15,748 nt of DNA from a virus (IMGVR_UViG_2651869748_000011); one strand, 5' to 3'. Shown: positions 1 to 15,748, numbered from the stretch's first letter. Numbers and translations are program-made. Notes: a model not told the origin generated them from the letters alone.

Positions 1-246
1 TCAGTATTTCCCCGATACCTTGTGTGCAAATTGCATCAGATAGTTGATAGCCTTTTGTTTGTCGTTCTGGCTGAGTTCGTGCTTACCACAGAATACAGCC
101 ATTCCGAATCCGGCTTGTGATTGCGCCATCCCCATAGCAGCCATCACATCAGTACCGGAAAGAGAGTCAGAAGCCGTAGCCCGTGGTGAGTCGCTCATCA
201 TCGGGCTTTTTGGCGAATGAAATTTAGCTACGCTTTCGAGTCTCAT
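1..246 (-). CDS. Q: Late-gene antiterminator Q (lambda type), N-terminal 81 codons only; the ORF closes with TGA at window positions 1-3
   Basis: Translation [31 protein letters not shown]...KVSGKY matches the lambda Q N-terminus as recalled; ATG at 246-244 overlaps the ninI stop. Lambda Q is about 207 aa, so this copy appears truncated. Confidence 0.85.
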
Positions 247-908
247 GCGCCTTCTCCCTGTACCTGAATCAATGTGAGGTTTCCGCAGAACACTGCGCCG
301 GTATCGATATACATCTGGTTGGCAAACTTGAGTGGTTTCACTGCTGGCGTATGACCAAAGATGAACGTGTCCGCACCTTTGATTTCTTTCACGATCCCGT
401 CTTGTGAGTTGCTGATTCGTTCGCGGTTCCAGATTACCTGCTGATGATCAACTGGTTTTCCAAACTCGTATTCGTCACAAGGATAATCGGCGTGGCAGAT
501 GACATATTTTTTATCTTTGCTCACCAGTTCGATGATTAACGGAAGTTCATCTGCTTTATGGGCAAGAGCTTTAGCCAGAATTTCTTTGTCGTAATCGAGA
601 TTAAAGAACCATCCACCGCCATTAAGCAGCCAGTGATTAACGTTTCCACGCTCTGATAAGCCATCAATCATCATTTGCTCATGGTTTCCACGTACAGCTC
701 TGAACCAGGGGAATGTGATTAATTCCAGGCATTCGACGTTCTCTGCACCACGATCAACCAAATCGCCCACCGAGATAAGCAGGTCTTTTTTGTTGTCGAA
801 TCCAATCGTATCCAGTTTGTTCATCAGGTTCGTGTAGCATCCGTGCAGATCGCCAACTACCCAAATATTTCGGTATTTGCTGCCATCAATTTTTTCGTAA
901 TAGCGCAT
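243..908 (-). CDS. ninI: Ser/Thr protein phosphatase (lambda PPase, NinI), 221 aa
   Basis: Starts [25 protein letters not shown]; metallophosphatase motifs GDLHG, GDLVDRG, GNHE; near-identical to recalled lambda PPase. Start set at the internal ATG (906-908) rather than the upstream end of the ORF. Confidence 0.93.
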
Positions 909-1092
909 CTCTTTCACTCCATCCGCGATGAACCATAAGAACATCGTTGACGATGGCGTGCATTTTCCCGTCTTTATCATCAACGTATTTTCTGACCGTA
1001 CCGCGACTACATTTCAGTCTGCGTGCTACTTCTGTCTGGTTTCCGTATGCTTCAACGAGCATGTCTGGAATGGTTTTTACTGAGAACGTCAT
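886..1092 (-). CDS. ninH: NinH (lambda orf68)
   Basis: 68-aa [39 protein letters not shown]...; position between ninG and ninI follows lambda nin order; HTH-like segment. Confidence 0.85.
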
Positions 1093-1700
1093 GCGGCCTC
1101 ACTTCTGCTATTTCGCAGGTCTTTGAGTTTCTGTTGGTACTCTGCCTTGATCGCCTTGCACTCTTCGACAGTCCAGCGATGGCGGCTATGGTTTGATTCG
1201 ATTTCGTCTACTGCTTCCTGCCCGATGCGGTTAATCAGTTCGACGCGATACGGAACGAGATTTCCGCTTTTGTGCTGGTTGCACACCACGCATTGCTTGT
1301 GAATATTGCGTTCATCAAATCGGAGTTGAGGTGCCGCAGCAGTTGTCCGGTAATGTCCGGCATCCCACTGAGCAGACGTGAGCGTTCCGCACGAGATACA
1401 TGGTAAGTCGCGGTCTCTTTCTCTGATGAAGGCGTTTACAGCTTGTTGGGCTTGTTTAATCCAGTAACTGCGGGGCTTTAAGGCGAGTTTTCGAATCTTC
1501 AGTTTATCTTTCTGTTTCTGCTCCTCTCGTCGTCGTTTCTTCTCTGCTGCTTTTTCCGCTTTTTCGCGTTCTTTGCTTCGTCGTTCCAGTGCTATCTTTG
1601 TTCCACACTCTGGAGAGCACCACCACTGATTAGCGAATGCAGGGTGAAACCATTCCCGACATTCTTCGTTTTTACATCGTCTTCGCGCTTGTTTAGCCAT
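1089..1700 (-). CDS. ninG: NinG / Rap recombination protein (lambda orf204)
   Basis: 203 aa, [33 protein letters not shown]...; Cys-rich Zn-binding N-terminus; matches lambda NinG as recalled; start overlaps upstream stop. Confidence 0.9.
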
Positions 1701-1969
1701 TATGGTTCGCTCCAGTAATTCTCAATTGCAGCAGCCATTCTCTGCATCCACTCTGCCAGCTTTAACGCGGCTTCTCTTTCAGAACCACATTTAGGGAAAT
1801 CCTTCATTTCCATGCTGGCCTTATATGTTCTGAATGCCAGGTCTCCGGTAATAACCAGCTCCTGATCAAGCACCGAGCGTTTATTCCGGTGTTGAACGTA
1901 ATAGACAGATTCAGTCCGCATTTCTTCTCTGTCTTTTTTGAAGGAAATAAGCTCAGAGAAATCACTCAT
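1700..1969 (-). CDS. Hypothetical 89-aa protein between ninF and ninG (not present in lambda at this position)
   Basis: ATG at 1969-1967 overlaps the ninF stop (ATGAGTGA); stop overlaps the ninG ATG, so it is translationally coupled within the nin operon. No family recognised. Confidence 0.6.
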
Positions 1970-2138
1970 CGTCTTCTTCCTCGTACATTGAGCTATTCGG
2001 ATCGCTCATCAGTTCTGCGCAGCAGTGCTCACACACATGAACTTCCAGCACATGCAGCTTCTGACCGCAGTTAGCGCACGTTAAAGCCCGCTCGACGCTT
2101 TCTTTCTGGTATTGAAGAGATTGGGATGGGCTAAGCAT
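1962..2138 (-). CDS. ninF: NinF (58 aa)
   Basis: Not in the ORF track (under 60 aa). Reverse-complement of 1962-2138 translates to [58 protein letters not shown], matching lambda NinF as recalled; CxxC...CxxC Zn-ribbon. Confidence 0.85.
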   Translation of the reverse strand: MLSPSQSLQYQKESVERALTCANCGQKLHVLEVHVCEHCCAELMSDPNSSMYEEEDDE

Positions 2139-2490
2139 TATTGGCGTCCTGCATCATGAGAAAGACAATCATGGCGGCGCGGAGGGAATTTTCATGTATA
2201 GCTAGCTTAGATTTACAGTCGGCCACACCACGTGCACCCCACTCGTCTTCATCGAGATTGATGATGCTAATCCTGTACTTCTCAATAATCGGCCATGAGG
2301 CGCTAGGATCATTGCAGTAGTCAGGCAAAGGGTTTAATGGCTCAAAAGTTGTATCAGCATTTCCGTAATACCATTTGTTGGTGTTATTCCCTGATGTTTC
2401 CGGTTTACATGCCCAAAGGCCTTTAAAAATTATGTCTCCTACCATTCTGTTAATTTCAAAATCACTTAACTGTGAATAATCCATTGTCAT
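2131..2490 (-). CDS. Hypothetical nin-region protein, possibly NinX-like (119 aa), lying between ninE and ninF
   Basis: ORF 2131-2526 begins at a GTG inside ninE; the more likely start is the ATG at 2490-2488, which overlaps the ninE TGA (ATGA). The ninE-X-ninF position matches P22/HK97-type nin regions. Family assignment is tentative. Confidence 0.55.
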
Positions 2491-2663
2491 TTCCTCGCAC
2501 GATGTCTTAGCCACCGGATATCCCACAGGTGAGCCGTGTAATTGAAGGTTTTTACGTCAGATTCTTTTGGGATTGGCTTGCGTTTATTTCTGGAGCGTTT
2601 CGTTGGAAGGTATTTGCAGTTTTCGCAGATGATGTCGGTGATACTTCGTCGCTGTCGTCTCAT
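2487..2663 (-). CDS. ninE: NinE (58 aa)
   Basis: [58 protein letters not shown] matches lambda NinE as recalled; ATG at 2663 overlaps the methyltransferase stop. Confidence 0.88.
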
Positions 2664-3187
2664 GCCGCCCTCCTGACGCCCTGCCCGATCGCCATCAATG
2701 CCGCTTTGGATACGGTAGTAAACATCCGTCGAGGACTGATGAACGGTCGCCAAATCAGCAGCATGGAACCTTTGCTGTTTCCCTTCTTCTCCAGCCCTGT
2801 CGATGGTTCGATAAAATTAATCCGTCCATCAGTGATAATACGAACTTCGTCAACACTCTCCAGAGCCTTGCTGAACCATCCGACAGACATATCCTCTGGC
2901 ACAAGCATCACTACCGTCTGTCGCTGTTGTATGCACTGCTCAGCGGCTTTTTCCACCCACGGCCTGATATTGCTGTACGGTGGGTTATTCCAGATTGCAC
3001 CGTGGCTTACCCACTCAGAATTGAGCGCGTCGTCGGCCTCAGTTAACCAGTGAGCGCACAGAGCATTTTTGTCGCTCGCTGCCGAATCCAGCCAGAATCC
3101 AAACTCAATATCCAGTGCATCAAAAAGCCAAAGCGGCGTTTGCCAGCAGTCCTTGTCGTGTGCTGGCGTATTTGATTTGATAGTCAT
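2660..3187 (-). CDS. Phage DNA N6-adenine methyltransferase (Dam-like orphan MTase) occupying the ninC/ninD slot
   Basis: [31 protein letters not shown]...; NPPY catalytic motif (AIWNNPPYS) typical of N6-adenine MTases; ATG at 3187 overlaps the ninB stop (ATGA). Confidence 0.8.
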
Positions 3188-3624
3188 GCAGCCCGATCTC
3201 CCCATCTCGCTTTCCACTCCAGAGCCAGTCTCGCTTCGTCTGACCACTTAACGCCACGCTCTGTACCGAATGCCTGTATAAGCTCTAATAGCTCCGCAAA
3301 TTCGCCTACACGCATCCTGCTGGTTGACTGGCCTATTACCACAAAGCCATTCCCGGCAAGGTTAGGAACAACATCCTGCTGCTTTAATGCTGCGGTAAAC
3401 ACACACTTCCAGCTTTCTGCATCCAGCCAGCGACCATGCCATTCAACCTGACGAGAGACGTCACCTAAGCAGGCCCATAGCTTCCTATTTTGGTCTAAGC
3501 TGCGGTTGCGTTCCTGAATGGTTACTACGATTGGTTTGGTTGGGTCTGGAAGGATTTGCTGTACTGCGTGAATAGCGTTTTGCTGATGTGCTGGAGATCG
3601 AATTTCAAAGGTTAGTTTTTTCAT
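3184..3624 (-). CDS. ninB: NinB recombination protein (lambda orf146)
   Basis: From MKKLTFEIRSPAHQQNAIHAVQQILPDPTKPIVVTIQERNRSLDQNRKLWACLGDV... 146 aa matching lambda NinB as recalled; strong SD (GGAGAGGGAAG) upstream of the ATG at 3624. Confidence 0.92.
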   Translation of the reverse strand: MKKLTFEIRSPAHQQNAIHAVQQILPDPTKPIVVTIQERNRSLDQNRKLWACLGDVSRQVEWHGRWLDAESWKCVFTAALKQQDVVPNLAGNGFVVIGQSTSRMRVGEFAELLELIQAFGTERGVKWSDEARLALEWKARWGDRAA

Positions 3625-3639
3625 GACTTCCCTCTCCCC

Positions 3640-3672
3640 CAAATAAAAAGGCCTGCGATTACCAGCAGGCCT
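3640..3672 (-). terminator. tR2-like rho-independent terminator between ren and ninB
   Basis: On the minus strand: AGGCCTGC-(8-nt loop)-GCAGGCCT followed by TTTTTATTTG; 8-bp GC-rich stem plus U-tract; matches the lambda tR2 position. Confidence 0.8.
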
Positions 3673-3697
3673 GTTATTAGCTCAGTAATGTAGATGG

Positions 3698-3988
3698 TCA
3701 TCTTTTAACTCCATATACCGCCAATACCCGTTTCATCGCGGCACTCTGGCGACACTCCTTAAAAATCAGGTTCGTGCTCATCTTTCCTTCCCGTTCTTCC
3801 CTGGTAGCAAACCGGTAATACACCGTTCGCCAGACCTTACCTTCGATAACCAGAAGACCTGCCCGTGCCATTTTAGCCGCGGCCTGATTTATGCTGGTTA
3901 CTGTTGCGCCTGTTAGCGCGGCAACGTCCGGCGCACAGAAGCTATTATGCGTCCCCAGGTAATGAATAATTGCCTCTTTGCCCGTCAT
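3698..3988 (-). CDS. ren: Ren (Rex-exclusion escape protein), 96 aa
   Basis: MTGKEAIIHYLGTHNSFCAPDVAALTGATVTSINQAAAKMARAGLLVIEGKVWRTVYY... matches lambda Ren; ATG overlaps the P stop. Confidence 0.92.
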   Translation of the reverse strand: MTGKEAIIHYLGTHNSFCAPDVAALTGATVTSINQAAAKMARAGLLVIEGKVWRTVYYRFATREEREGKMSTNLIFKECRQSAAMKRVLAVYGVKR

Positions 3989-4686
3989 ACACTTGCTCCT
4001 TTCAGTCCGAACTTAGCTTTAATTTCTGCGATCTTCGCCAGAGCCTGTGCACGATTTAGAGGTCTACCGCCCATAACAGGAAGTTGTTTTACTGGTTCAG
4101 GTATCGTCTCACCACGGTTAATTCGCGCTGTCATACAGGTCAGTTCATCGGCAGCCTTGCGCCGTAATTCCGCATCAGTAAGCGCATTGGCCCGCATGTT
4201 CTGATACAGGTTGGTAACCAGCCAGTAGTGCGCGTTTGATTTCCACGGATAAGACTCCGCATCCGGATACAGGCCTCGCTTCCGGCAATACTCGTAAACC
4301 ATATCAACCAGCTCGCTGACGTTTGGCAGTCCGGCGATAACGGATGCTTCTTCCCGGCACCATGCAACAAACTGCCCGGGTGATGGCAGAAATGGTCGAT
4401 TCTGCCGACGGGCTACGCGCATTCCTGCGTTAACCTGTTCCATCGTGGTGATCCCGTTTTCCCGAAAAGCCAGAACCCACTGGCGACGGATTTCGTTCAC
4501 TTCGTTCTGGTCACGGTTAGCCAGGCTCGCCGGGAAAGTTGCCAGTAACTGGCTGAACACACCGTTGATGATCTGCGCTACCTGCTGTACCTGCGGCTTT
4601 TCGTCGTACTGTTCCGGCATGTTGTTGGCGATCCGACGCATCTGCTCACGGTCAAAGTTAACCATCTGTGCGGCGATGTTTTTCAT
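3985..4686 (-). CDS. P: Replication protein P (DnaB helicase loader), 233 aa
   Basis: MKNIAAQMVNFDREQMRRIANNMPEQYDEKPQVQQVAQIINGVFSQLLATF... matches lambda P; start overlaps the O stop. Confidence 0.95.
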   Translation of the reverse strand: MKNIAAQMVNFDREQMRRIANNMPEQYDEKPQVQQVAQIINGVFSQLLATFPASLANRDQNEVNEIRRQWVLAFRENGITTMEQVNAGMRVARRQNRPFLPSPGQFVAWCREEASVIAGLPNVSELVDMVYEYCRKRGLYPDAESYPWKSNAHYWLVTNLYQNMRANALTDAELRRKAADELTCMTARINRGETIPEPVKQLPVMGGRPLNRAQALAKIAEIKAKFGLKGASV

Positions 4687-5582
4687 AGATCCACCCCGTA
4701 AATCCAGTCTGTGTTTGTCAGGTCGAGTTTTGGTTTGCTGGCTGTCACGACTGCCTGTTGCTTGTTACGGTTGATTTCGAGCTGGGTCCACTTGTCGCGG
4801 AGTTTGGCCGGACTAAGCACGTTACCGGACCAGAAGTTGTCCTGGCATGCCCAGCGGAACAGCACGCACATGTCGCGGTGGTTACGTCCGTCACGTTCAC
4901 GCATCAGGCGGATATCGTTAGCCCACCCTGCAAAATTCGGTTTTCTGGCTGATGGCGCGATGGTCTTCACCATGTCAAACATCCACTCTGCGGCGGTCAG
5001 GTCTTCTGCTGTCCCCCACTTGCTGCCGCTCTGAATTGCAGCATCCGGTTTCACCACAGAAAGATCGTTTTCTGGCTGGTCAGAGGATTCGCCAGAATTC
5101 TCTGACGAATAATCTTTTCTTTTTTCTTTTGTAATAGTGTCTTTTGTGTCCCTCTGTTTTGAGGGATAGCAATCCCCCAATTTGAGGGATGTTTTATCCC
5201 TCGTTTTAGGGGATTTTCCCTCGTTTTGAGGGATACACCATTCTGAGATGTTTTTATTTGGTCCAAACATGCCGCCTTGCTGCTTGATAATATTCATTCT
5301 GACGAGTTCTAACTTGGCTTCATTGCACCGTTTGACGGGTAACTTTGTAATCTCGCTAAGTTGAGAATCGGTGACTCTGTCCATTGGTTTATTCCACCCA
5401 TAGGTTTTACGCAGAATGGCAAGCAGCACTTTAAACTGTCGCTTGGTCAGATCTGCGCCCGAATAAGCCTCAAGCAGCATATTTGATAGTCTGGCGTAAC
5501 CATCATCGAGATCTGCCACATTACGCTCCTGTCCGGCAAAGTTACCTCTGCCGAAGTTGAGTATTTTTGCTGTATTTGTCAT
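4683..5582 (-). CDS. O: Replication initiator O, 299 aa
   Basis: MTNTAKILNFGRGNFAGQERNVADLDDGYARLSNMLLEAYSGADLTKRQFKVLLAILRKTYGWNKPMD... matches lambda O; the origin iterons lie inside the coding sequence. Confidence 0.95.
   Translation of the reverse strand: MTNTAKILNFGRGNFAGQERNVADLDDGYARLSNMLLEAYSGADLTKRQFKVLLAILRKTYGWNKPMDRVTDSQLSEITKLPVKRCNEAKLELVRMNIIKQQGGMFGPNKNISEWCIPQNEGKSPKTRDKTSLKLGDCYPSKQRDTKDTITKEKRKDYSSENSGESSDQPENDLSVVKPDAAIQSGSKWGTAEDLTAAEWMFDMVKTIAPSARKPNFAGWANDIRLMRERDGRNHRDMCVLFRWACQDNFWSGNVLSPAKLRDKWTQLEINRNKQQAVVTASKPKLDLTNTDWIYGVDL
5100..5233. other. ori-lambda: four iterons plus adjacent AT-rich region, inside O
   Basis: Four ~18-bp inverted-symmetry repeats of the type TCCCTCnnTTTGAGGGA at about 5149-5166, 5173-5189, 5197-5213 and 5217-5233; AT-rich tract at about 5100-5148 (cttttcttttttcttttgtaatagtg). 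Confidence 0.9.
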
Positions 5583-5592
5583 AATGACTCCT

Positions 5593-5669
5593 GTTGATAG
5601 ATCCAGTAATGACCTCAGAACTCCATCTGGATTTGTTCAGAACGCTCGGTTGCCGCCGGGCGTTTTTTA
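5593..5669 (+). ncRNA. oop: oop antisense RNA (~77 nt), overlapping the cII 3' end
   Basis: Plus-strand terminator CGCUCGG-UUGCCG-CCGGGCG followed by UUUUUU at 5643-5668, antisense to the cII 3' end. The 5' end is inferred from the lambda arrangement (start about 10 nt ahead of the O ATG), not seen directly. Confidence 0.65.
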
Positions 5670-5908
5670 TTGGTGAGAATCGCAGCAACTTGTCGCGCCA
5701 ATCGAGCCATGTCGTCGTCAACGACCCCCCATTCAAGAACAGCAAGCAGCATTGAGAACTTTGGAATCCAGTCCCTCTTCCACCTGCTGATCTGCGACTT
5801 ATCAACGCCCACAGCTTCCGCTGTCTTCTCAGTTCCAAGCATTGCGATTTTGTTAAGCAACGCACTCTCGATTCGTAGAGCCTCGTTGCGTTTGTTTGCA
5901 CGAACCAT
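5615..5908 (-). CDS. cII: Transcriptional activator cII, 97 aa
   Basis: MVRANKRNEALRIESALLNKIAMLGTEKTAEAVGVDKSQISRWKRDWIPKFSMLLAVLEWGVVDDDMARLARQVAAILTNKKRPAATERSEQIQMEF matches lambda cII; start taken at the ATG at 5908. Confidence 0.95.
   Translation of the reverse strand: MVRANKRNEALRIESALLNKIAMLGTEKTAEAVGVDKSQISRWKRDWIPKFSMLLAVLEWGVVDDDMARLARQVAAILTNKKRPAATERSEQIQMEF
5886..5899 (+). promoter_or_regulatory. cII-binding site of PRE (TTGC-N6-TTGC), directing plus-strand transcription toward cI
   Basis: ttgcgtttgtttgc on the plus strand just inside the cII 5' end, as in the lambda PRE -35 region. Confidence 0.7.
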
Positions 5909-5987
5909 ATGTAAGTATTTCCTTAGATAACAATTGATTGAATGTATGCAAATAAATGCATACACCATAGGTGTGGTTTAATTTGAT

Positions 5988-6019
5988 GCCCTTTTTCAGG
6001 GCTGGGATGTGTAAGAGCG
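5988..6019 (-). promoter_or_regulatory. nutR (boxA CGCTCTTAC, boxB GCCCTGAAAAAGGGC), with the tR1 region downstream toward cII
   Basis: Minus-strand sequence cgctcttacacatcccagccctgaaaaagggcatcaaa; boxB hairpin at 5988-6002, boxA at 6011-6019; palindrome TATGCAAATAAATGCATA at about 5944-5961 in the tR1 region. Confidence 0.85.
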
Positions 6020-6027
6020 GGAATATC

Positions 6028-7383
<1,356 letters not shown>

Positions 7384-7433
7384 TCCCCACCTCAATCTCG
7401 ATAACCAAAAAACAAACTATTTTCCGTTTAAAA

Positions 7434-7502
7434 ACAATGGAGTTTGTTTTTCATGCCCCTTTTTTACAATATTTCTTGTTTACAACATACAATCTTTCTT
7501 GT
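7434..7502. promoter_or_regulatory. 434-type left operator region (OL) and PL promoter upstream of nutL and N
   Basis: 14-bp ACAA-N6-TTGT sites: ACAATATTTCTTGT (7466-7479), ACAATCTTTCTTGT (7489-7502), and a weaker candidate ACAATGGAGTTTGT (7434-7447). Confidence 0.65.
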
Positions 7503-7548
7503 AATTTTAAGCCATCAGCAGGACGCACTGACCACCATTGAAGGTGAT

Positions 7549-7578
7549 GCTCTTAAAAATTAAGCCCTGAAGAAGGGC
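7549..7578 (+). promoter_or_regulatory. nutL (boxA GCTCTTAA, boxB GCCCTGAAGAAGGGC)
   Basis: Plus-strand sequence gctcttaaaaattaagccctgaagaagggcagcattcaaagcag matches lambda nutL as recalled. Confidence 0.88.
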
Positions 7579-7736
7579 AGCATTCAAAGCAGAAGGCTTT
7601 GGGGTGTGTGATACGAAACGAAGCATTGGCCGGAAGTGCGAATCCGGATTAGCTGCAAATGAGCCAATCGTGGGGTGTTTTCGTTCAGGACTACGACTCA
7701 CACACACCACCAAAGCTAACTGACAAGAGAATCCAG

Positions 7737-8060
7737 ATGGATGCACAAACACGCCGCCGCGAACGTCGCGCAGAGAAACAGGCTCAATGGAAAGTAGCAA
7801 ATCCCCTGTTGGTTGGGGTAAGCGCAAAACCAGTTAACCGCCCTATTCTCTCGCTGAATCGCAAACCGAAATCACGAGTAGAAAGCGCACTGAATCCGAT
7901 AGACCTTACAGTGCTGGCTGAATACCACGAACAGATTGAAAGCAACCTGCAACGTATTGAGCGCAAGAATCAGCGCACATGGTACAGCAAGCCTGGCGAA
8001 CGCGGCATAACATGCAGTGGACGCCAGAAAATTAAGGGAAAATCGATTCCTCTTACCTAG
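7737..8060 (+). CDS. N: Antiterminator N, lambda type (107 aa)
   Basis: MDAQTRRRERRAEKQAQWKVANPLLVGVSAKPVNRPILSLNRKPKSRVESALNPIDLTVLAEYH... arginine-rich motif; matches lambda N; the longer 7659 start in the ORF track is disfavoured. Confidence 0.93.
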   Translation: MDAQTRRRERRAEKQAQWKVANPLLVGVSAKPVNRPILSLNRKPKSRVESALNPIDLTVLAEYHEQIESNLQRIERKNQRTWYSKPGERGITCSGRQKIKGKSIPLT

Positions 8061-8615
8061 TTACTTAGATATTGGCCTTGGCTTTATCTCAATATTATAT
8101 GGATCATAGCTGGCAACTAATTCAGTCCAGTAAATATCCTCAATAGGGAATAATATATGCTTCCCGTTCCATCGGGAAAAAGTTTTGTTCAACACACCAA
8201 GCTCAATCAACTCACTAATGTATGGGAATTGTTTTGATGTAACCACATACTTCCTGCCTTCATTAAGGGCTGCGCACAAAACCATAGATTGCTCTTCTGT
8301 AAGGTTTTGAATTACCGATCGCACTTTATCGTTTTGCATCTTAATGCGTTTTCTTAGCTTAAATCGCTTATATTTGGCGCTGGCAATAGCTGATAATCGA
8401 TGCACATTAATTGCTAGCGAAAATGCAAGAGCAAAGACGAAAACATGCCACACATGAGGAATACCGATTCTCTCATTAACATATTCAGGCCAGTTATCTG
8501 GGCTTAAAAGCAGAAGTCCAACCCAGATAACGATCATATACATGGTTCTCTCCAGAGGTTCATTACTGAACACTCGTCCGAGAATAACGAGTGGATCCAT
8601 TTCTATACTCATCAA
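8061..8615 (-). CDS. sieB: Superinfection exclusion protein SieB (membrane protein), 184 aa
   Basis: Abuts N tail-to-tail as in lambda; hydrophobic segments MYMIVIWVGLLLLSP and HVWHVFVFALAFSLAI; matches lambda SieB as recalled. Confidence 0.82.
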   Translation of the reverse strand: MMSIEMDPLVILGRVFSNEPLERTMYMIVIWVGLLLLSPDNWPEYVNERIGIPHVWHVFVFALAFSLAINVHRLSAIASAKYKRFKLRKRIKMQNDKVRSVIQNLTEEQSMVLCAALNEGRKYVVTSKQFPYISELIELGVLNKTFSRWNGKHILFPIEDIYWTELVASYDPYNIEIKPRPISK

Positions 8616-8739
8616 ACTGTAGGGGTTGTAATAGTTTATCCGATTTCTCGCTGTAGGGGTACACGAGAACCACCGAGCCTGATGTGGTTAAAAGACAGGC
8701 ACAATCTTTACTACCGCAATCCACTATTTAAGGTGATAT

Positions 8740-8826
8740 ATGGAAGAAGAATTTGAAGAGTTCGAAGAGCATCCGCAGGATGTAATGGAACAGTACCAGG
8801 ACTATCCGTATGACTACGACTATTGA
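8740..8826 (+). CDS. Small acidic 28-aa ORF upstream of, and overlapping, ral; doubtful gene
   Basis: MEEEFEEFEEHPQDVMEQYQDYPYDYDY; ATG preceded by AAGGTGA; not in the ORF track because of its size. Confidence 0.3.
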   Translation: MEEEFEEFEEHPQDVMEQYQDYPYDYDY

Positions 8827-8989
8827 TAAGAATCAATGGTGTGGACAATTCAAGCGATGCAATGGATGCAAGCTGCAATCGGAATGCATGGTTAAGCCTG
8901 AAGAAATGTTTCCTGTAATAGAAGATGGGAAATATGTCGATAAATGGGCAATACGAACGACGGCAATGATTGCCAGAGAACTTGGTTAA
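8810..8989 (+). CDS. ral: Ral (restriction-alleviation protein) with a premature in-frame TAA; 59 aa here versus about 66 aa in lambda
   Basis: MTTTIDKNQWCGQFKRCNGCKLQSECMVKPEEMFPV.EDGKYVDKWAIRTTAMIARELG then TAA; the same frame continues as QNNKAA-TGA (stop at 9008-9010), matching the lambda Ral C-terminus as recalled. Confidence 0.75.
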   Translation: MTTTIDKNQWCGQFKRCNGCKLQSECMVKPEEMFPVIEDGKYVDKWAIRTTAMIARELG

Positions 8990-9109
8990 CAGAACAACAA
9001 AGCTGCCTGATAGTGGCCTTTATTTTTGGCATAAATAACAGAATAAACACTGCACTGAACCGCCCCGGGAATCCTGGAGACTAAACTCCCTGAGAAAGAG
9101 GTAAACAGG

Positions 9110-10365: not shown

Positions 10366-10554
10366 CTGCGTGTGTGGGTTCGTCAGCATGAGCGGGATAC
10401 CGGGAGTGGTGATGGTGGACTCACCACCGCTGAACGTCAGCGTCTGAAAGAGCTGGAACGTGAAAATCGTGAACTGCGCCGCAGTAACGATATCCTTCGC
10501 CAGGCTTCCGCTTATTTTGCGAAGGCGGAGTTCGACCGCCTCTGGAAAAAATAA
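10366..10554 (+). pseudogene. 5'-truncated orfA remnant of the second IS element
   Basis: Encodes ...[60 protein letters not shown] with no native start codon or left inverted repeat. Confidence 0.8.
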
Positions 10555-11441
10555 TGCCGCTGCTGGATAAGCTGCGTGAGCAGTACGGGGTCGGACCGGT
10601 ATGCAGTGAACTGCATATTGCCCCGTCAACGTATTACCACTGTCAGCAACAGCGACATCATCCTGATAAACGCAGTGCCCGTGCTCAGCGCGATGACTGG
10701 CTGAAGAGAGAGATACAGCGCGTATACGATGAAAATCACAAGGTATACGGTGTGCGTAAAGTCTGGCGCCAGTTGTTACGCGAAGGTATCAGGGTGGCCA
10801 GATGTACAGTGGCGCGCCTCATGGCGGTTATGGGACTTGCCGGTGTTCTCCGGGGTAAAAAGGTCCGTACTACCGTCAGCCGGAAAGCCGTTTCCGCAGG
10901 CGACCGCGTAAACCGTCAGTTCGTGGCAGAACGTCCTGACCAGCTGTGGGTGGCTGATTTTACTTACGTCAGCACATGGCAGGGCTTCGTCTATGTGGCG
11001 TTCATCATTGATGTGTTTGCCGGATGTATCGTGGGGTGGCGAGTCTCATCGTCTATGGAAACGACATTCGTGCTGGATGCACTGGAGCAGGCGTTGTGGG
11101 CCCGTCGGCCGTCCGGCACAGTCCATCACAGTGATAAAGGTTCTCAGTATGTATCACTGGCCTATACGGAGCGACTAAAAGAAGCAAAACTGCTGGCATC
11201 AACAGGGAGTACAGGTGACTCGTATGACAACGCGATGGCGGAGAGCATCAATGGTCTTTACAAAGCGGAGGTAATACACCGTAAGAGCTGGAAAAACCGT
11301 GCAGAAGTGGAACTGGCCACACTCACGTGGGTGGACTGGTATAACAATCGACGATTGCTGGGAAGGCTGGGTCATATCCCTCCGGCAGAAGCAGAAAAAG
11401 CTTATTATGCTTCCATCAGAAACGATGATCTGGCAGCCTGA
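10554..11441 (+). CDS. IS3-family transposase OrfB of the truncated element (probably not expressible as OrfAB)
   Basis: 295-aa ORF about 95% identical in protein to copy-1 OrfB (e.g. FAGCIVGWRVSSS versus FAGYIVGWQVSSS). Confidence 0.8.
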   Translation: MPLLDKLREQYGVGPVCSELHIAPSTYYHCQQQRHHPDKRSARAQRDDWLKREIQRVYDENHKVYGVRKVWRQLLREGIRVARCTVARLMAVMGLAGVLRGKKVRTTVSRKAVSAGDRVNRQFVAERPDQLWVADFTYVSTWQGFVYVAFIIDVFAGCIVGWRVSSSMETTFVLDALEQALWARRPSGTVHHSDKGSQYVSLAYTERLKEAKLLASTGSTGDSYDNAMAESINGLYKAEVIHRKSWKNRAEVELATLTWVDWYNNRRLLGRLGHIPPAEAEKAYYASIRNDDLAA

Positions 11442-11713
11442 GTTCACAGATAAAACACTCTCCAGGAAAACCGGGGCGGTTCAAATAACATTGTGCGTAC
11501 TCCTCTTGAGAAGGTGAGAACTATCGGTATCGCAGACACAGTTATGCCTACGGGTCTCCCCGCATCGGTCATTCTCAAAAGGTTTAAAATAGGGTTAGGT
11601 TTGATCACTCTGAACGATCAATCGAAGACATTACGATTGGAACAAACGATCAATAGGTATGTGGTTATTTGCTAAGCTGCGACAACCTTTACAAAGACAC
11701 TCAGGAATGTTTC

Positions 11714-12022
11714 ATGCCCAAATTAGCTATTAGCTTATTACTTTACTTGGCCTGCTTTTATGCAGTTGGATATGGCGCTGGATATATAACAGGTGGAATA
11801 ACTTGGCACACACTGTATATGCTTGAACGTATAATTACCGTAGCCCTACTTGCATTCATTCCAGTGTTTATCTTTGCGGCTTTATTAAATGCATCCAAAA
11901 GACAAGGAATAATAAAATCACTTTCTGTCTCAGCGATTAATTTAATCCCTTCGGCTATCGCATTACTTATAGGATTTACTGACGCAGTGACCAGAAAGTT
12001 TCTTACTTATTTTCTCGGTTAA
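11714..12022 (+). CDS. Small hydrophobic membrane protein (102 aa, about 3 predicted TM helices), AT-rich gene
   Basis: MPKLAISLLLYLACFYAVGYGAGYITGG...ERIITVALLAFIPVFIFAALL...INLIPSAIALLIGF; SD AGGAA 9 nt upstream; its 3' end overlaps the convergent 63-aa gene by about 20 bp. Confidence 0.55.
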   Translation: MPKLAISLLLYLACFYAVGYGAGYITGGITWHTLYMLERIITVALLAFIPVFIFAALLNASKRQGIIKSLSVSAINLIPSAIALLIGFTDAVTRKFLTYFLG

Positions 12023-12194
12023 CTGACATATTGCGAATGACCAACTGTTCTATTAGCTCATTACGAGAATAAAATGGTCGGTCATTCGTAGCCGCTTTAT
12101 CCACGCCAAGCATCGACAATAGAATAGAAGTGGGAAGCCCCCGGTAACGCAGGGTCAAACGGCCTTCGGGAGTGCGTGGGTCAATCATAGCCAT
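12003..12194 (-). CDS. Hypothetical 63-aa protein, translationally linked to the upstream 161-aa gene
   Basis: ATG at 12194 sits 2 nt after the upstream TAA and is preceded by GGAG; MAMIDPRTPEGRLTLRYRGLPTSILLSMLGVDKAATNDRPFYSRNELIEQLVIRNMSVNRENK. Confidence 0.5.
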   Translation of the reverse strand: MAMIDPRTPEGRLTLRYRGLPTSILLSMLGVDKAATNDRPFYSRNELIEQLVIRNMSVNRENK

Positions 12195-12196
12195 TG

Positions 12197-12682
12197 TTAA
12201 AGTCTCCACTCACAGCGACCGACACGTAGCTCCTCAAACTCCTCTTTCGAGACGAGTTGTCCAGCCCTGTAGTGCGATACCGTGTGCTTCTTAATGAATG
12301 CCTTAGAGTCCGGCGTGATGTCGTCCGAAGATGCTACAGCGGCCTGTACGCTGGCACTGGAGGTCATAGACACAAAGGCATCCGCTACAGCTATTCCGTA
12401 CTCAAAGTCCAGCCACTCGCCAAACTTGACGGCGGACGTGGGGTCAGCAAGCCATGACGTACCGAGGCGACCCATATCAACTTTCTTTATGCGGCGGTTT
12501 TTCTGCCCCATAAGATAGCGCCCGACTTTGGTCTGAGCGAAACGCTTAACCATTGTCTTCTCGGTGTCTTCTACCTTACCAATCTGAATACCGACCCGGC
12601 GAATTTCATCCAATCGGAACAATCCGTCTTGACTGGTGAGGTCCTGACCGAAGATATGGATAGTGTATTCTTGTTGAGACAT
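12197..12682 (-). CDS. Hypothetical 161-aa protein, possibly KilA-N-like DNA-binding domain
   Basis: MSQQEYTIHIFGQDLTSQDGLFRLDEIRRVGI...GRLGTSWLADPTSAVKFGEWLD resembles the KilA-N conserved core (G-T-[WY]-x-H/A...W-L motif); strong SD AAAAGGAG upstream of the ATG at 12682. Assignment is from memory. Confidence 0.6.
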   Translation of the reverse strand: MSQQEYTIHIFGQDLTSQDGLFRLDEIRRVGIQIGKVEDTEKTMVKRFAQTKVGRYLMGQKNRRIKKVDMGRLGTSWLADPTSAVKFGEWLDFEYGIAVADAFVSMTSSASVQAAVASSDDITPDSKAFIKKHTVSHYRAGQLVSKEEFEELRVGRCEWRL

Positions 12683-12905
12683 ATCGTTGTACTCCTTTTA
12701 TCTGCATCCTGAAGCCGCATCCTGCCGCCTACTCAAAGCCCCCAACGATAGGGAGACGGCAGGCAACAAGACGCAGATAGAATGACTTTGAGATTTGATG
12801 ATTAGTGTCGGCGGTGGCACTTATTTAAAACGAAAGGACAACAGCATATTTCCGCATGACTTGACGCATCAAGGCCAGAGGCAGAAATAAGTATTTGCTC
12901 GGTGT

Positions 12906-12929
12906 CGTTCCTAAGGTGATAGTTTAGTC
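12906..12929 (-). promoter_or_regulatory. Second, weaker phage-RNAP promoter-like copy sharing the same -18 to -5 block
   Basis: Minus strand GACTAAACTATCACCTTAGGAACG; a 14-nt block (GACTAAACTATCAC) is identical to the upstream copy, but the initiation region is degenerate. Confidence 0.3.
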
Positions 12930-13447
12930 AAACAGTAATGAACTTCGGAGAACTTGACTCGAAAGTGTTCAGGACTTCCAGTGAGACCCGAAGTATGGAG
13001 ATCATATTATAGCGACCATAGTTTACTTCGGACTGACAGGACTGGAGGCTGGACTTAAAGTTCTTCTTATTGGAATTGTGATAACACAATCCATAACAAG
13101 ATAAACTCATGGTCTCCTCAAGCCTGCTGGTCAAGACTCAAAGCTCCAACCTCAGACACCACCACTGGTCTAACCTCTTTGAGTTTCCGCCTGTCCACAA
13201 ATGGATGGCAGACCTCAGCAATGATGTCTTGGTTCTTCAGTTATCCGCGCAGCGATTATCACAGAGCCAACTTAAAGTCGGATGTGGTCTTCTGCTCCCC
13301 GCCTGTCAAAAGGGAAGATAACCTACGTTAAAAGAGAATGGTCTCAGGCCAAGGTGATTTAACACTAGGCGTCTGCGGATGGTTTCCAATCGGTCCGCTA
13401 CCGGAAGCCTGAGACTATATGAATGTGTGGGTCGGTGACTTAGGGCC

Positions 13448-13470
13448 TCTCCCTATAGTGATAGTTTAGT
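13448..13470 (-). promoter_or_regulatory. T7-family single-subunit RNA polymerase promoter-like sequence (candidate), predicted start G at 13453
   Basis: Minus strand ACTAAACTATCACTATAGGGAGA; positions -8 to +6 (TCACTATAGGGAGA) are identical to the T7 consensus, while -17 to -9 differ (a different specificity region); located 18 bp downstream of the 219-aa gene stop. Confidence 0.45.
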
Positions 13471-13488
13471 CCCCCTTCCCCGTCAGCC

Positions 13489-14148
13489 CTACTCGTTAGC
13501 GGCCTGTTGCTGTTCCCTCGCTTTCCGGTCCCGGTCTTCAATGCCCTTAAGCGCCCGTTCCGGCATACTGTTAAACATGGCTTCGACTTCTTTCGGTCGA
13601 GTAATCTGCTCAGTGACAATAATGTTCAGCAGCTTAAAGAGACCATGCGCCAACTGAGGGTCGTCATCAATGTTAATTTCACCCGGATGTACCGCCTGAT
13701 TGCCAACAATACGACAGATGTCAGCAGCTCGCTGGACCAGTGGAGACAGCCCTTTAGCTACAAGGGACTTAATGTCCGTGTCGATATGCTTCCCCGGCTC
13801 ACCGAGATGGACCATCAGCTTTTGAAGACTTAAGCGCAGGAGTGCGGCAGCGCCCTTAGGTGACAGATTAATGATGCTTCTGGCTTCCATGTAGTCGGAC
13901 TTACAGTCTTCTGGCATGTCAGGATTAGGCAGCTCAACACTACCAGCCGCAGGAATCATCATATTGCCTTTATACCAATAAGCATTTTCATAGCAATGTT
14001 GACAATATGATAAGTGGAAATCAGTTTCCATATAAGTAGAATGAGGCGCAACTCCCACCATTGACCGCCAGCTTTGCTTGGAATAAACACCACAGTGCGG
14101 GCAATTAAAAGCTTTACCATCAAACACCGCCGGATAATACTCAGCCAT
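13489..14148 (-). CDS. 219-aa protein with N-terminal Zn-ribbon (CPHCG...CQHC) and a C-terminal region possibly DUF4145/HEPN-like; translationally coupled to the integrase
   Basis: [25 protein letters not shown]...[13 protein letters not shown]...; C-terminal motif [17 protein letters not shown]; its ATG (14148-14146) overlaps the integrase TGA (ATGGCTGA). Family call is tentative. Confidence 0.6.
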
Positions 14149-15748
14149 TTACTCCAGTCTCCTTATAAACATCAGCCATCACATTAACCAATCTATCTAC
14201 CTCGACTTCTTTCGCATACCTGTCATAGGTAATCGACCCTGAGCTATGACCCATAATCGCCTGAGCATACGCTAACCCGACCCCATGTTGTTTTAACTGG
14301 GTCGCCACTGTATGTCTGAATGAGTGGAACGCTAAGCCGCTACGGTCAGCGAGGACTTTAGGTAGCAACGTTCTGTTAAACCATTTGCTCACCTGCTCAC
14401 CGTAGCCGTTCTTCATCAGCTTGAGGCCATCGAATACCATAGCATTATCACCCTTAGCCTTTCTACGGTCTTCCACGAGTGACATAAAGTCAGCCAATAA
14501 AAAACCATAAGCACCATCTACCAACGGGACACAGCGGTCACTATGGGCGTTCTTGATGCTCTTACCCGGTAGGCTGCTATCGTCTTCGTTGATATGGATA
14601 TACACGGTCCCGGCCTCAGTGGTCCTGACGTCTTTGACCTGAAGCTGAGCCACCTCATTAAGTCTTGCTCCAGTGATTGCCGCCAGAGCAGTGACGTAAT
14701 AGTGGTAGGGCTTACCTGAGGTCTTCTGAGAGTACGCTTTAGCGGCGACCAGTAGTTGCCCTACCTGCTCAGGACTGAACGCATCACGAGCGTCGGAGGC
14801 TTTACGCTGCGGGACTTTCAGCTCAAGACCTTCGGTCAGGTTCTTAGCTATCAAGTCGTTGCGTACCGCCCACTTAAACACAGCAGCCATCTTGATAAGA
14901 TATTTATTGTTGATGGTAACGACATCCAAACAGTCAGTCTTAGACTCCCGGTTCAGCAGGTCAGACAGCGGCATAGACTTAAAGCGTTGCTTGCGGTTCT
15001 TCGGTATCTGCTGGAGGACTTCACGGACCCTGAGCATATCTGAACGGGTCGCCTTGCTGACATCCTGAATATCCAGATAGTCGAATATCTCGATTAACGT
15101 AGAGTGAGACGCTCGGTTCTCGCTTAGGGTCGCTGGCTTCCAGTTCTGAGCGTTCTCCTGCTCGTACTGCTCAATGAGAGACGCGAGGGTCAGTGCTTTA
15201 GGCTCGGGGACTTCAGGCTCTGCCAATACAGATAGGGAGACGGACGGTCTTAGACTGCCAGTCTCAGGCTCAAGGTAAGACAACAGGCCAGAGGTATCGC
15301 CTTTGAGTCTATCCTGACACGCTTTAAGCACACCGATAACGTCATTGATATAGCGATGCTGGTCTACAGTCAGATGCTCAGTCGCTACAGCTTCCCGAAG
15401 GTTGGACTTGATGTCATCGTACTGGTCAACGTAGAGCTGGTAGGACTCAGGGTCGTTCAGGTCATCGCGGCTGACACTAAGTTCCCACTCGACAATGGTC
15501 TTCAGGTGTTCCCGTAGCTCCTCATAAGAGGCGTTAGGGTTGTCTGCGTGGATTGCTTTAAGTGCTGACTTGATGTGCCGTGAGTGAGCCATAGCGGTAC
15601 GTCTATCCTTGGTCCGTAAAGATACTGACGCTAGTTTATAACGGTTGTGAGAAGGAAGCGAAGCGGTCAGGCGACTAGTGGTCTTCATCCTAAGACGGAT
15701 GTAAAAGACACCGTTACGCTGATAAAGGTAGGTTCTTGAATTGAGCAT
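14141..15748 (-). CDS. Tyrosine site-specific recombinase / integrase (535 aa), unrelated to lambda Int
   Basis: C-terminal catalytic residues: R in [12 protein letters not shown]-x-x-R in [10 protein letters not shown] in [11 protein letters not shown]; N-terminus [20 protein letters not shown] typical of large-N-terminus integrases; its ATG is the last 3 bases of the window. Confidence 0.85.

Follow-up and report, generated by a model that had tools for sequence, protein, structure and literature searches.

Why would a chromosomal island of bacteria carry, in front of its own genes, the promoters of a phage RNA polymerase? The question is raised by the gene cluster at one end of a 15,748-nucleotide DNA stretch from a virus (IMGVR_UViG_2651869748_000011; this whole stretch is hereafter the window). 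A first interpretation, made from the sequence alone (the sequence-only reading), saw in this cluster an integrase-linked accessory module with unassigned components, a candidate new defense or satellite-like system, and is partly supported by the analysis described here. The module comprises the 4.3 kb nearest the integrase in an integrative element of Enterobacterales that measures ~6.2 kb when intact; its Zn-ribbon protein is, by homology, the published defense protein RAZR/PD-T7-4; and its long leader contains two apparent promoters of the single-subunit RNA polymerase (RNAP) of T7-group phages, a wiring that would place the downstream operon under the control of an infecting phage. The features of the module, with sizes in amino acids (aa) and gene calls from the table of open reading frames (ORFs), are:

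14141-15748, minus strand: tyrosine integrase, 535 aa
13489-14148, minus strand: RAZR/PD-T7-4, the Zn-ribbon protein, 219 aa
12683-13488, minus strand: non-coding leader between RAZR and the cargo operon, 806 nt
13448-13470, minus strand: promoter A, ACTAAACTATCACTATAGGGAGA, Kayfunavirus-type, beginning 18 nt past the RAZR stop codon, predicted +1 at 13453
12906-12928, minus strand: promoter B, ACTAAACTATCACCTTAGGAACG, Kayfunavirus variant with CACCTTAGG, predicted +1 at 12911
12197-12682, minus strand: 161-aa gene, the first downstream of the phage promoters (slot 2)
12003-12194, minus strand: 63-aa gene, 2 nt past the 161-aa stop codon
11714-12022, plus strand: convergent 102-aa gene

The ATG of RAZR overlaps the integrase stop codon by 8 nt (ATGGCTGA), and the 3' end of the 63-aa gene is overlapped over 20 nt by the convergent 102-aa gene. 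The ORF table reproduces the gene positions given by the sequence-only reading, and all five genes evolve as coding sequences under purifying selection, with ratios of nonsynonymous to synonymous substitution rates (dN/dS) of 0.06-0.37 in comparisons with orthologs from other genomes.

Phage polymerase promoters in the leader

The claim that the leader carries phage-type promoters is borne out. The gap contains two 20-nt repeats, whose gene-strand sequences are ACTAAACTATCACTATAGGGAGA and ACTAAACTATCACCTTAGGAACG. Promoter A is identical in 23 of 23 positions to the annotated EcoDS1 promoter upstream of the capsid gene 10A (EU734172 20819-20841), and promoter B has the rare CACCTTAGG core in common with the EcoDS1 promoter upstream of gene 4 (11107-11129). 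At the position of promoter B, the relatives L024 and L025 (related loci are designated by L numbers) have the canonical CACTATAGGGAC form. Scored with a weight matrix derived from the 11 promoters annotated in EcoDS1 (-17 to +6, 23 nt), promoters A and B reach 33.9 and 29.6 bits, within the range of EcoDS1's own promoters (29.3-35.4 bits), as against 8.5 bits for the next best site in the window and a mean maximum of 10.3 bits in shuffled sequences. The exact 19-mer of promoter A is found in 21 viral contigs, all but one of which (20/21) are 39-41 kb long, and the 19-mer or its close variants occur in 401 phage records, mostly K1F-like, at 8-10 places each among the records listed.

No other trace of phage DNA was detected around these sites: leader and cargo, compared at the nucleotide level with 50,697 phage genomes, gave no match outside the promoters, and the promoters were also the sole similarity to EcoDS1, with no likeness to a terminal repeat or pac site. 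No sigma-70-like promoter is predicted on the operon strand of the leader. A third copy of the 20-mer, considered inside RAZR (~13854-13873), has 75% identity and scores 8.5 bits, and is attributed to chance.

By identity and conservation, both leader repeats are, as far as sequence can tell, genuine single-subunit RNAP promoters of the Kayfunavirus (K1F/EcoDS1) type. Like the annotated T7-group promoters of EcoDS1, to which the 23-mers are identical or nearly so, they have the GGGAGA start; unlike T7-group transcription units, they reside on a bacterial chromosomal element that contains no other phage-derived DNA.

Conservation of the promoters across island variants

In all 14 island loci compared, a T7-group promoter of this or a closely related type lies, in the orientation of the genes, between slot 1 (the position of RAZR) and slot 2. 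These loci include Rha-type and KilA-N-type islands of E. coli, islands of Enterobacter, Leclercia, Pectobacterium, Shigella and a 'Photorhabdus' assembly, and islands with a different integrase that are inserted in ynfE. In the Shigella variant, whose integrase is 43% identical over the part available, nothing of the 806-nt leader can be aligned any longer except a 22-nt promoter, which is 100% identical.

When 185,579 species, represented by a single genome each, were scanned for the 19-mer, 3 matches emerged, each beside a related integrase and 2 of them with island backbone genes. Among 5426 complete E. coli genomes, 236 have a close match to the promoter (median 2 copies, all chromosomal), unannotated in all 40 of the matches listed, and 390 have a match to the leader or the adjoining cassette, mostly to the leader alone. 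Several variants carry additional promoters of the T7 group:

L049 5756-5810 and L050 5703-5760 (L050/L051), with a close variant at L043 7716-7770: added tandem promoter GAATATACCCTCACTATAGGGG
L024 ~7925-7945 and L025 ~7910-7930: added tandem promoter AAACCCACACTATAGGGG
L052 2030 and 2469, and L053 ~2500-2545: further T7-group promoter variants

The first of these, GAATATACCCTCACTATAGGGG, is identical in 20 of 20 positions to sites in Cronobacter phage GW1, Escherichia phage Ro103C3lw and Enterobacter phages (19/19 for phiEap-1). The second, AAACCCACACTATAGGGG, shows 95.7% identity to Vibrio ICP3/N4, and its 16-nt core AACCCACACTATAGGG occurs exactly in two ~39-kb T7-like viral contigs, in 9 and 11 copies. 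The promoters are, on this comparative evidence, a conserved and selected feature of the island family.

The defense gene RAZR

The Zn-ribbon protein that had seemed unassigned is already known. It matches the PADLOC model of PD-T7-4 (PDLC04109) with E = 1.7e-99 (residues 1-209 of the 211-position model) and RAZR-Ec (PDB 9Y9C, chain OA) with E = 2.5e-112 over 219 of 219 residues, and contains the Pfam domain DUF4145 (HEPN-like RNase domain, 3.4e-13). In common with RAZR-Ec, it has equal length, a Cys4 ribbon (intact, Cys16/19/49/52), a conserved linker, and the catalytic residues R146 and H154 at the same positions; the overlap of its gene with the integrase gene agrees with reports on the family. 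Identity to RAZR-Ec is 75% overall (zinc finger 60%, linker 93%, HEPN-like domain 83%); the differences from the solved protein cluster in the sensor domain, at residues 20-60. By this full-length homology, the 219-aa protein is RAZR/PD-T7-4, a known abortive-infection defense that combines a Cys4 zinc-ribbon sensor with a DUF4145 RNase.

According to the passages searched, a functional selection in E. coli brought PD-T7-4 to light, and its gene and that of an integrase often overlap (Vassallo et al. 2022, PMC9519451). Now called RAZR, the protein acts in abortive infection as an RNase; it cleaves tRNA and mRNA (Nature 2026, PMC13017515) and assembles on ring-shaped phage proteins, namely the portals of T7, T3 and SECphi18, and Gp77 of SECphi27 (PMC13017515). 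Cloned RAZR alone confers defense (PMC9519451, PMC13017515). The same passages make no mention of downstream phage promoters or of the rest of the element. Because RAZR works alone and members of its family often overlap an integrase, the pairing of the two genes is explained. The proposal that integrase, Zn-ribbon protein, KilA-N-like protein and membrane protein make up one system is thus not borne out, whereas the integrase-linked accessory module as such stands, as a module of a mobile element with anti-phage content (RAZR, integrase, repeats of the attachment site, att).

Given that the zinc-finger sensor sets the trigger specificity and is only 60% identical to its counterpart, the phage range of the window RAZR may differ from that of RAZR-Ec, which suggests an allele with a different trigger range.

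The integrative element and its truncation

The integrase (Pfam Phage_integrase PF00589, 8e-19; phrog_1, 3e-44) has HxxR at residue 475 and the nucleophile motif ITYDRY, and its dN/dS relative to orthologs is 0.06-0.11. Window positions 11481-15748 are 100% identical to the chromosome of E. coli Res13-Lact-PEA14-20 (L001), in which the 5' end of the integrase gene lies 135 bp from tRNA-Gly (glyU), and the other side of the island adjoins ygeQ and the decayed ETT2 type III secretion cluster. The att site and island boundaries, which the sequence-only reading expected beyond the end of the window, were found by comparison of genomes: the 3' end of tRNA-Gly is repeated directly as an 18-bp sequence (CTCCCTTCGCCCGCTCCA) that bounds the intact element, with ~6.15 kb between the repeats in L027. 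The same repeat is present in L001, L024, L025 and L053, a set of E. coli genomes and metagenome contigs.

Without insertion sequence (IS) elements, the island measures ~6.15 kb, in the order integrase, slot-1 gene, leader, slot-2 gene or genes, 63 aa, 163 aa, 326-329 aa, one or more short ORFs, att; the short ORFs at the end are taken from intact copies (e.g., L027, L042, L052). The integrase is the element's own recombinase, and the element inserts into the 3' end of tRNA-Gly (glyU).

In the window, the element is cut short by an IS:

11481-11491, minus strand: first 11 nt of the 163-aa backbone gene (ATG at 11491), the truncation point
10366-11486, plus strand: partial IS3-family copy responsible for the truncation, with 99.6% identity to the IS at L001 13280-14401
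9053-10366: second IS3-family copy, complete and adjacent, 94.4% identical to the L001 IS

A base-by-base comparison (blastn against L001) places the end of the match at 11481, 11 nt inside the 163-aa gene, which is annotated in L001 at 14501-14992. The 163-aa and 329-aa genes, the most conserved pair of the backbone, and the distal att site have been removed from this copy by the IS truncation, and since only the first two operon genes are left in the window, the role of the distal genes is lost here. Beyond the IS copies, window positions 176-9057 match lambdoid early regions. The decayed prophage that had been noted as a neighbor of the module is therefore present as a lambdoid remnant, but the break in identity at the IS identifies this neighborhood as a junction made by IS elements, and the adjacency is secondary. 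The entire window occurs in no complete E. coli genome of the collection (best coverage 60%), and neither does the junction of island, IS and lambdoid DNA.

Copies from elsewhere inform on the state of the insertion site. The L053 contig (Logan SRR22859383, 6519 bp) extends past each att repeat by 30 nt (k-1), a sign that occupied and empty (or excised) sites were present within one sample. L052 and L027 are likewise metagenome contigs that correspond closely to the island. The notion that such ~6.5-kb contigs represent a free circular island was rejected, the ends being located exactly k-1 nt outside the att repeat. In L025 10425-14910 (EHEC-type 2013C-4187), a second integrase and a prophage with a major capsid gene occupy the integrase side, where tRNA-Gly is found in other strains, suggesting tandem occupation of the glyU site.

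Variable slots

Slots 1 and 2 vary, independently of each other, while the backbone genes stay conserved. RAZR is replaced in slot 1 by orphan proteins of 122 or 166 aa, and slot 2 holds the 161-aa protein, Rha/Ant, KilA-N, HNH or other orphan proteins. The replacement genes of both slots are candidate anti-phage genes:

L045 6533-7033, L042 6620-6988 and L052 2097-2465: slot-1 replacements
L053 2629-3426, L052 3061-3777 and L042 5674-6228: slot-2 replacements

The slot-2 protein of the window had been labeled KilA-N-like. Pfam PF04383, Bro-N and Rha are matched neither by this protein nor by 23 members of its family, even at E <= 10, and the PHROG and NCBIfam scans gave no support for KilA-N. 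On the other side, hhalign pairs residues 78-122 with the C-terminal third of the KilA-N domain in the L045 protein, across 44 columns and at a probability of 53% (E = 1.4e-4). The label is thus possible but weak, silent in the family scans and kept alive by this profile match. The slot-2 genes of sister islands encode bona fide Rha/Ant (phrog_10324, 2e-69) and KilA-N (Pfam, 1e-9) proteins, whereas the 161-aa protein is detected by no family model and represents an orphan family confined to the island. This family comprises 41 clusters, from Enterobacterales only; its profile, searched against 1.84e9 representatives with HMMER, recovered only the family itself, and the sole phage match is to a Vibrio phage Ant (tblastn, E = 0.09). 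The gene evolves with a dN/dS of 0.07-0.24, and the AlphaFold2 model of the family (pLDDT 48) is too poor for a fold search.

Backbone and remaining genes

The 63-aa protein is basic (pI ~10) and is encoded by a backbone gene in most of the island variants examined; a homolog (57%) also follows the Rha-type gene in L024. It forms 55 clusters, in E. coli, Salmonella, Citrobacter, Enterobacter, Kluyvera, Leclercia, Pectobacterium and the 'Photorhabdus' assembly, with a dN/dS of 0.16-0.29 and no family match in Pfam, PADLOC, PHROG and NCBIfam scans, and is a candidate small DNA-binding or excision factor.

All variants read as far as the distal part contain the genes for the 163-aa and 329-aa proteins, although their integrases and insertion sites differ. 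The 163-aa protein is rich in coiled coils, and one member of its family weakly matches Pfam T7_gp14 (E = 0.015, below cutoff). For the 329-aa protein, no match was found to the EcoDS1 capsid protein gp10A (hhalign), to PDB (sequence and profile searches), PHROGs, PADLOC or phage genomes (tblastn). Traces below threshold consist of Phage_cap_P2 in 1 of 12 members scanned with Pfam (E = 0.049) and a head-decoration PHROG (E = 0.025). A role as the element's own capsid is unsupported, no capsid homology having been found, and the AlphaFold2 model of the family (pLDDT 35) is too poor for a fold search.

Intact islands have a terminator-like hairpin past the 326-329-aa gene, and then a small ORF. 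This last ORF encodes either a 28-aa hydrophobic peptide with a strong Shine-Dalgarno sequence or a glycine/proline-rich protein of 79-80 aa:

L027 ~5740-5910, L042 3053-3292 and L052 5844-6086: small ORFs past the 326-329-aa gene

The 102-aa protein (gene GC content 0.369) has three hydrophobic segments (approximately residues 4-22, 40-58 and 70-88). Its orthologs in L027 and L044 are 91-93% identical (dN/dS 0.15-0.37), and it is also present in L049/L050; Pfam, PADLOC, PHROG and NCBIfam scans found no family match above threshold. Among the variants examined, the gene occurs only with the 161+63 cassette; a homolog is not annotated in the Rha and KilA-N variants, and there is none in L052/L053. 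The gene is antisense to the transcript from the phage promoters. The suggestion that this membrane protein is an effector finds no supporting link.

Structure of the leader

Rfam had no match to positions 11400-15748 at E <= 1. The leader has a folding z-score of -2.46 and contains a conserved long imperfect hairpin:

12691-12787, minus strand: hairpin of ~95 nt, ending at the Shine-Dalgarno sequence of the first cargo gene

In an RNAalifold alignment of 7 sequences, the hairpin has 34 pairs, 6 of which show compensatory changes, and it is kept upstream of the 161-aa, Rha and KilA-N alternatives despite the differing downstream gene. Possible roles are cleavage by RNase III and control of translation. 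T7 mRNA leaders carry RNase III sites, and the island resembles them in having a long hairpin in the 5' untranslated region ahead of a strong Shine-Dalgarno sequence; RNase III processing of the island transcript is conjectural.

The leader has one sizeable ORF (12928-13134), with a strong Shine-Dalgarno sequence, which was rejected as a gene: it has a stop codon in L024 and a frameshift in L025, and no intact counterpart was detected in L044 or L027. Within it lies a perfect palindrome, ATTGTGTTATCACAAT (13075-13090), part of a leader block that the Enterobacter variant L044 has retained as well; the palindrome may be a protein-binding site.

How the element might work

T7-group phages inactivate the host RNAP; their middle and late genes are then read from 23-nt promoters by the phage's own enzyme. 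T7-like phages are strictly virulent and silence host transcription within minutes. Because these phages shut off the host enzyme and use their own, the operon behind the leader promoters would be silent until infection.

We are somewhat inclined to the view that the element has two layers, one provided by RAZR and the other by an operon switched on by the phage polymerase, and that phage-dependent exploitation is the favored purpose of the second. The two layers would be functionally separate. In the first, established by homology to characterized proteins, the integrase gene is accompanied by RAZR, a constitutively expressed RNase that assembles on ring-shaped phage proteins and then cleaves RNA. 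In the second, the phage promoters would drive a transcript with a structured 5' untranslated region, followed by the variable first gene, the 63-aa, 163-aa and 329-aa genes and the small ORF or ORFs. This operon would be silent in healthy cells and strongly transcribed as soon as an infecting K1F-type phage has produced its polymerase; given the difference at promoter positions -8 to -12, T7 itself would not be expected to switch it on. The products would act on the phage or on the element itself, and in the case of phage-dependent exploitation the element would excise and propagate in the manner of a satellite, with the 63-aa protein as a possible directionality factor. Since the genes driven by the promoters are the conserved backbone rather than variable cargo, such a phage-dependent life cycle is favored, with a second infection-triggered defense layer as a close alternative.

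Several observations weigh against this view. The use of the promoters by a phage polymerase is deduced from sequence only, and the 161-, 63-, 163- and 329-aa proteins have no informative homologs. Nothing in the element resembles a T7-type terminal repeat, packaging signal, primase or terminase, and in the genes scanned Pfam, PHROG and NCBIfam gave no primase, helicase or Rep. The three contigs of the viral collection that include the 329-aa gene all have identifiers in the style of isolate genomes, so that nothing here points to encapsidation. The killing by RAZR of cells that T7-like phages infect fits awkwardly with a T7-like helper unless the allele specificities differ. Finally, the truncated copy in the window may be functionless for the phage-promoter operon layer.

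An extended version of the satellite-like scenario can be put forward only tentatively, namely that these islands represent the first satellites or hyperparasites of T7-group phages (Studiervirinae), which are virulent. Under this scheme, promoter arrays fitted to several T7-like genera would sense infection and keep transcription going after the shut-off of the host RNAP; the element would excise, with the 63-aa protein as directionality factor, and then undergo T7-type replication primed by transcription, which is conjecture; the orphan 163-aa and 329-aa proteins would spread the element or block the phage, and defense genes such as RAZR would be swappable.

Alternative explanations

The most serious rival is that the island is purely a defense cassette, in which the promoters drive toxic or phage-inhibiting effectors as a second, infection-triggered abortive layer, without any mobilization by phage; the effectors would be the slot-2 proteins, DNA-binding or nuclease proteins of the KilA-N, Rha or HNH type, together with the backbone proteins. 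This is possible, although we doubt it. RAZR adjoins the operon, slot 2 is hypervariable (HNH nuclease, Ant/Rha/KilA-N), as selection in an arms race predicts, and the KilA-N variant weakly matches the PADLOC candidate PDC-S22 (6e-7); moreover, neither packaging or replication genes nor contigs clearly derived from viromes were found. However, the 163-aa and 329-aa genes recur in all distal parts read, which is more typical of the life cycle of a mobile element than of cargo, and PADLOC models match neither of these downstream genes.

It is very unlikely that the promoter-like 23-mers are non-functional debris of recombination with Kayfunavirus DNA. They are identical to phage promoters, and recombination between phage and island could deposit such sequences, but the flanks show no detectable DNA of phage origin, the 22-23-mers persist at 100% identity even where the remaining leader no longer aligns, and the promoters always aim at the cargo from the same position. 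Furthermore, different variants have different tandem T7-group promoter types, the pattern expected from selection for several phage polymerases, which is hard to square with inert debris.

We give similarly little credence to a single new multi-component defense system made of all five genes, with the 102-aa protein as effector. In its favor, the 161-type variants examined inherit these genes together, as a contiguous set. Yet RAZR defends alone when cloned, as reported in the passages cited above (PMC9519451, PMC13017515), the integrase, in combination with the att repeats, serves mobility, no homolog of the 102-aa protein, whose gene is transcribed against the operon, is seen in the Rha, KilA-N and L052/L053 variants, and the slots vary independently.

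Least probable of all is a decayed temperate T7-like prophage that retained its own promoters: T7-group promoters, an integrase and the weak T7_gp14 match in the 163-aa family (E = 0.015) would fit, but neither EcoDS1 nor any of the 50,697 phage genomes shows similarity to a gene of the element, whose size is a uniform ~6.2 kb with intact att repeats and which does not encode an RNAP.

Relation to known satellites and implications

Like P4-like elements, PICIs, PLE of V. cholerae and PICMI of Vibrio, the island is a small integrase-encoding element with att repeats and a conserved backbone. As in these satellites, which harbor defense hotspots and are induced by functions of a helper, variable anti-phage slots lie beside the integrase, and expression is apparently tied to one group of phages; any helper of the island would be virulent, as ICP1 is for PLE. 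The island differs from these satellites in that its induction would come about through direct use of promoters for the helper RNAP, rather than through derepression or a helper activator, and in having no recognizable genes for replication, capsid redirection or packaging; no evidence of encapsidation was found. In the literature searched, we found neither a satellite of T7-group phages nor a chromosomal element wired to their RNA polymerase. RAZR and its link with the integrase are already published, whereas the wiring of the island to phage promoters appears to be new and would represent a new induction logic.

The element is present in ~4-9% of complete E. coli genomes, including enterohemorrhagic E. 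coli (EHEC) O26:H11, and in several genera of Enterobacterales. Being so common in E. coli and present in several genera, it could matter for phage therapy with K1F-type and related podophages. The analysis places RAZR in its natural context, and the island offers compact, naturally orthogonal expression cassettes that respond to phage. If the proposed wiring is true, infection would be sensed through the transcription machinery of the invader, rather than through a protein or nucleic-acid signal, which would be new for a cell or a parasite of phages.

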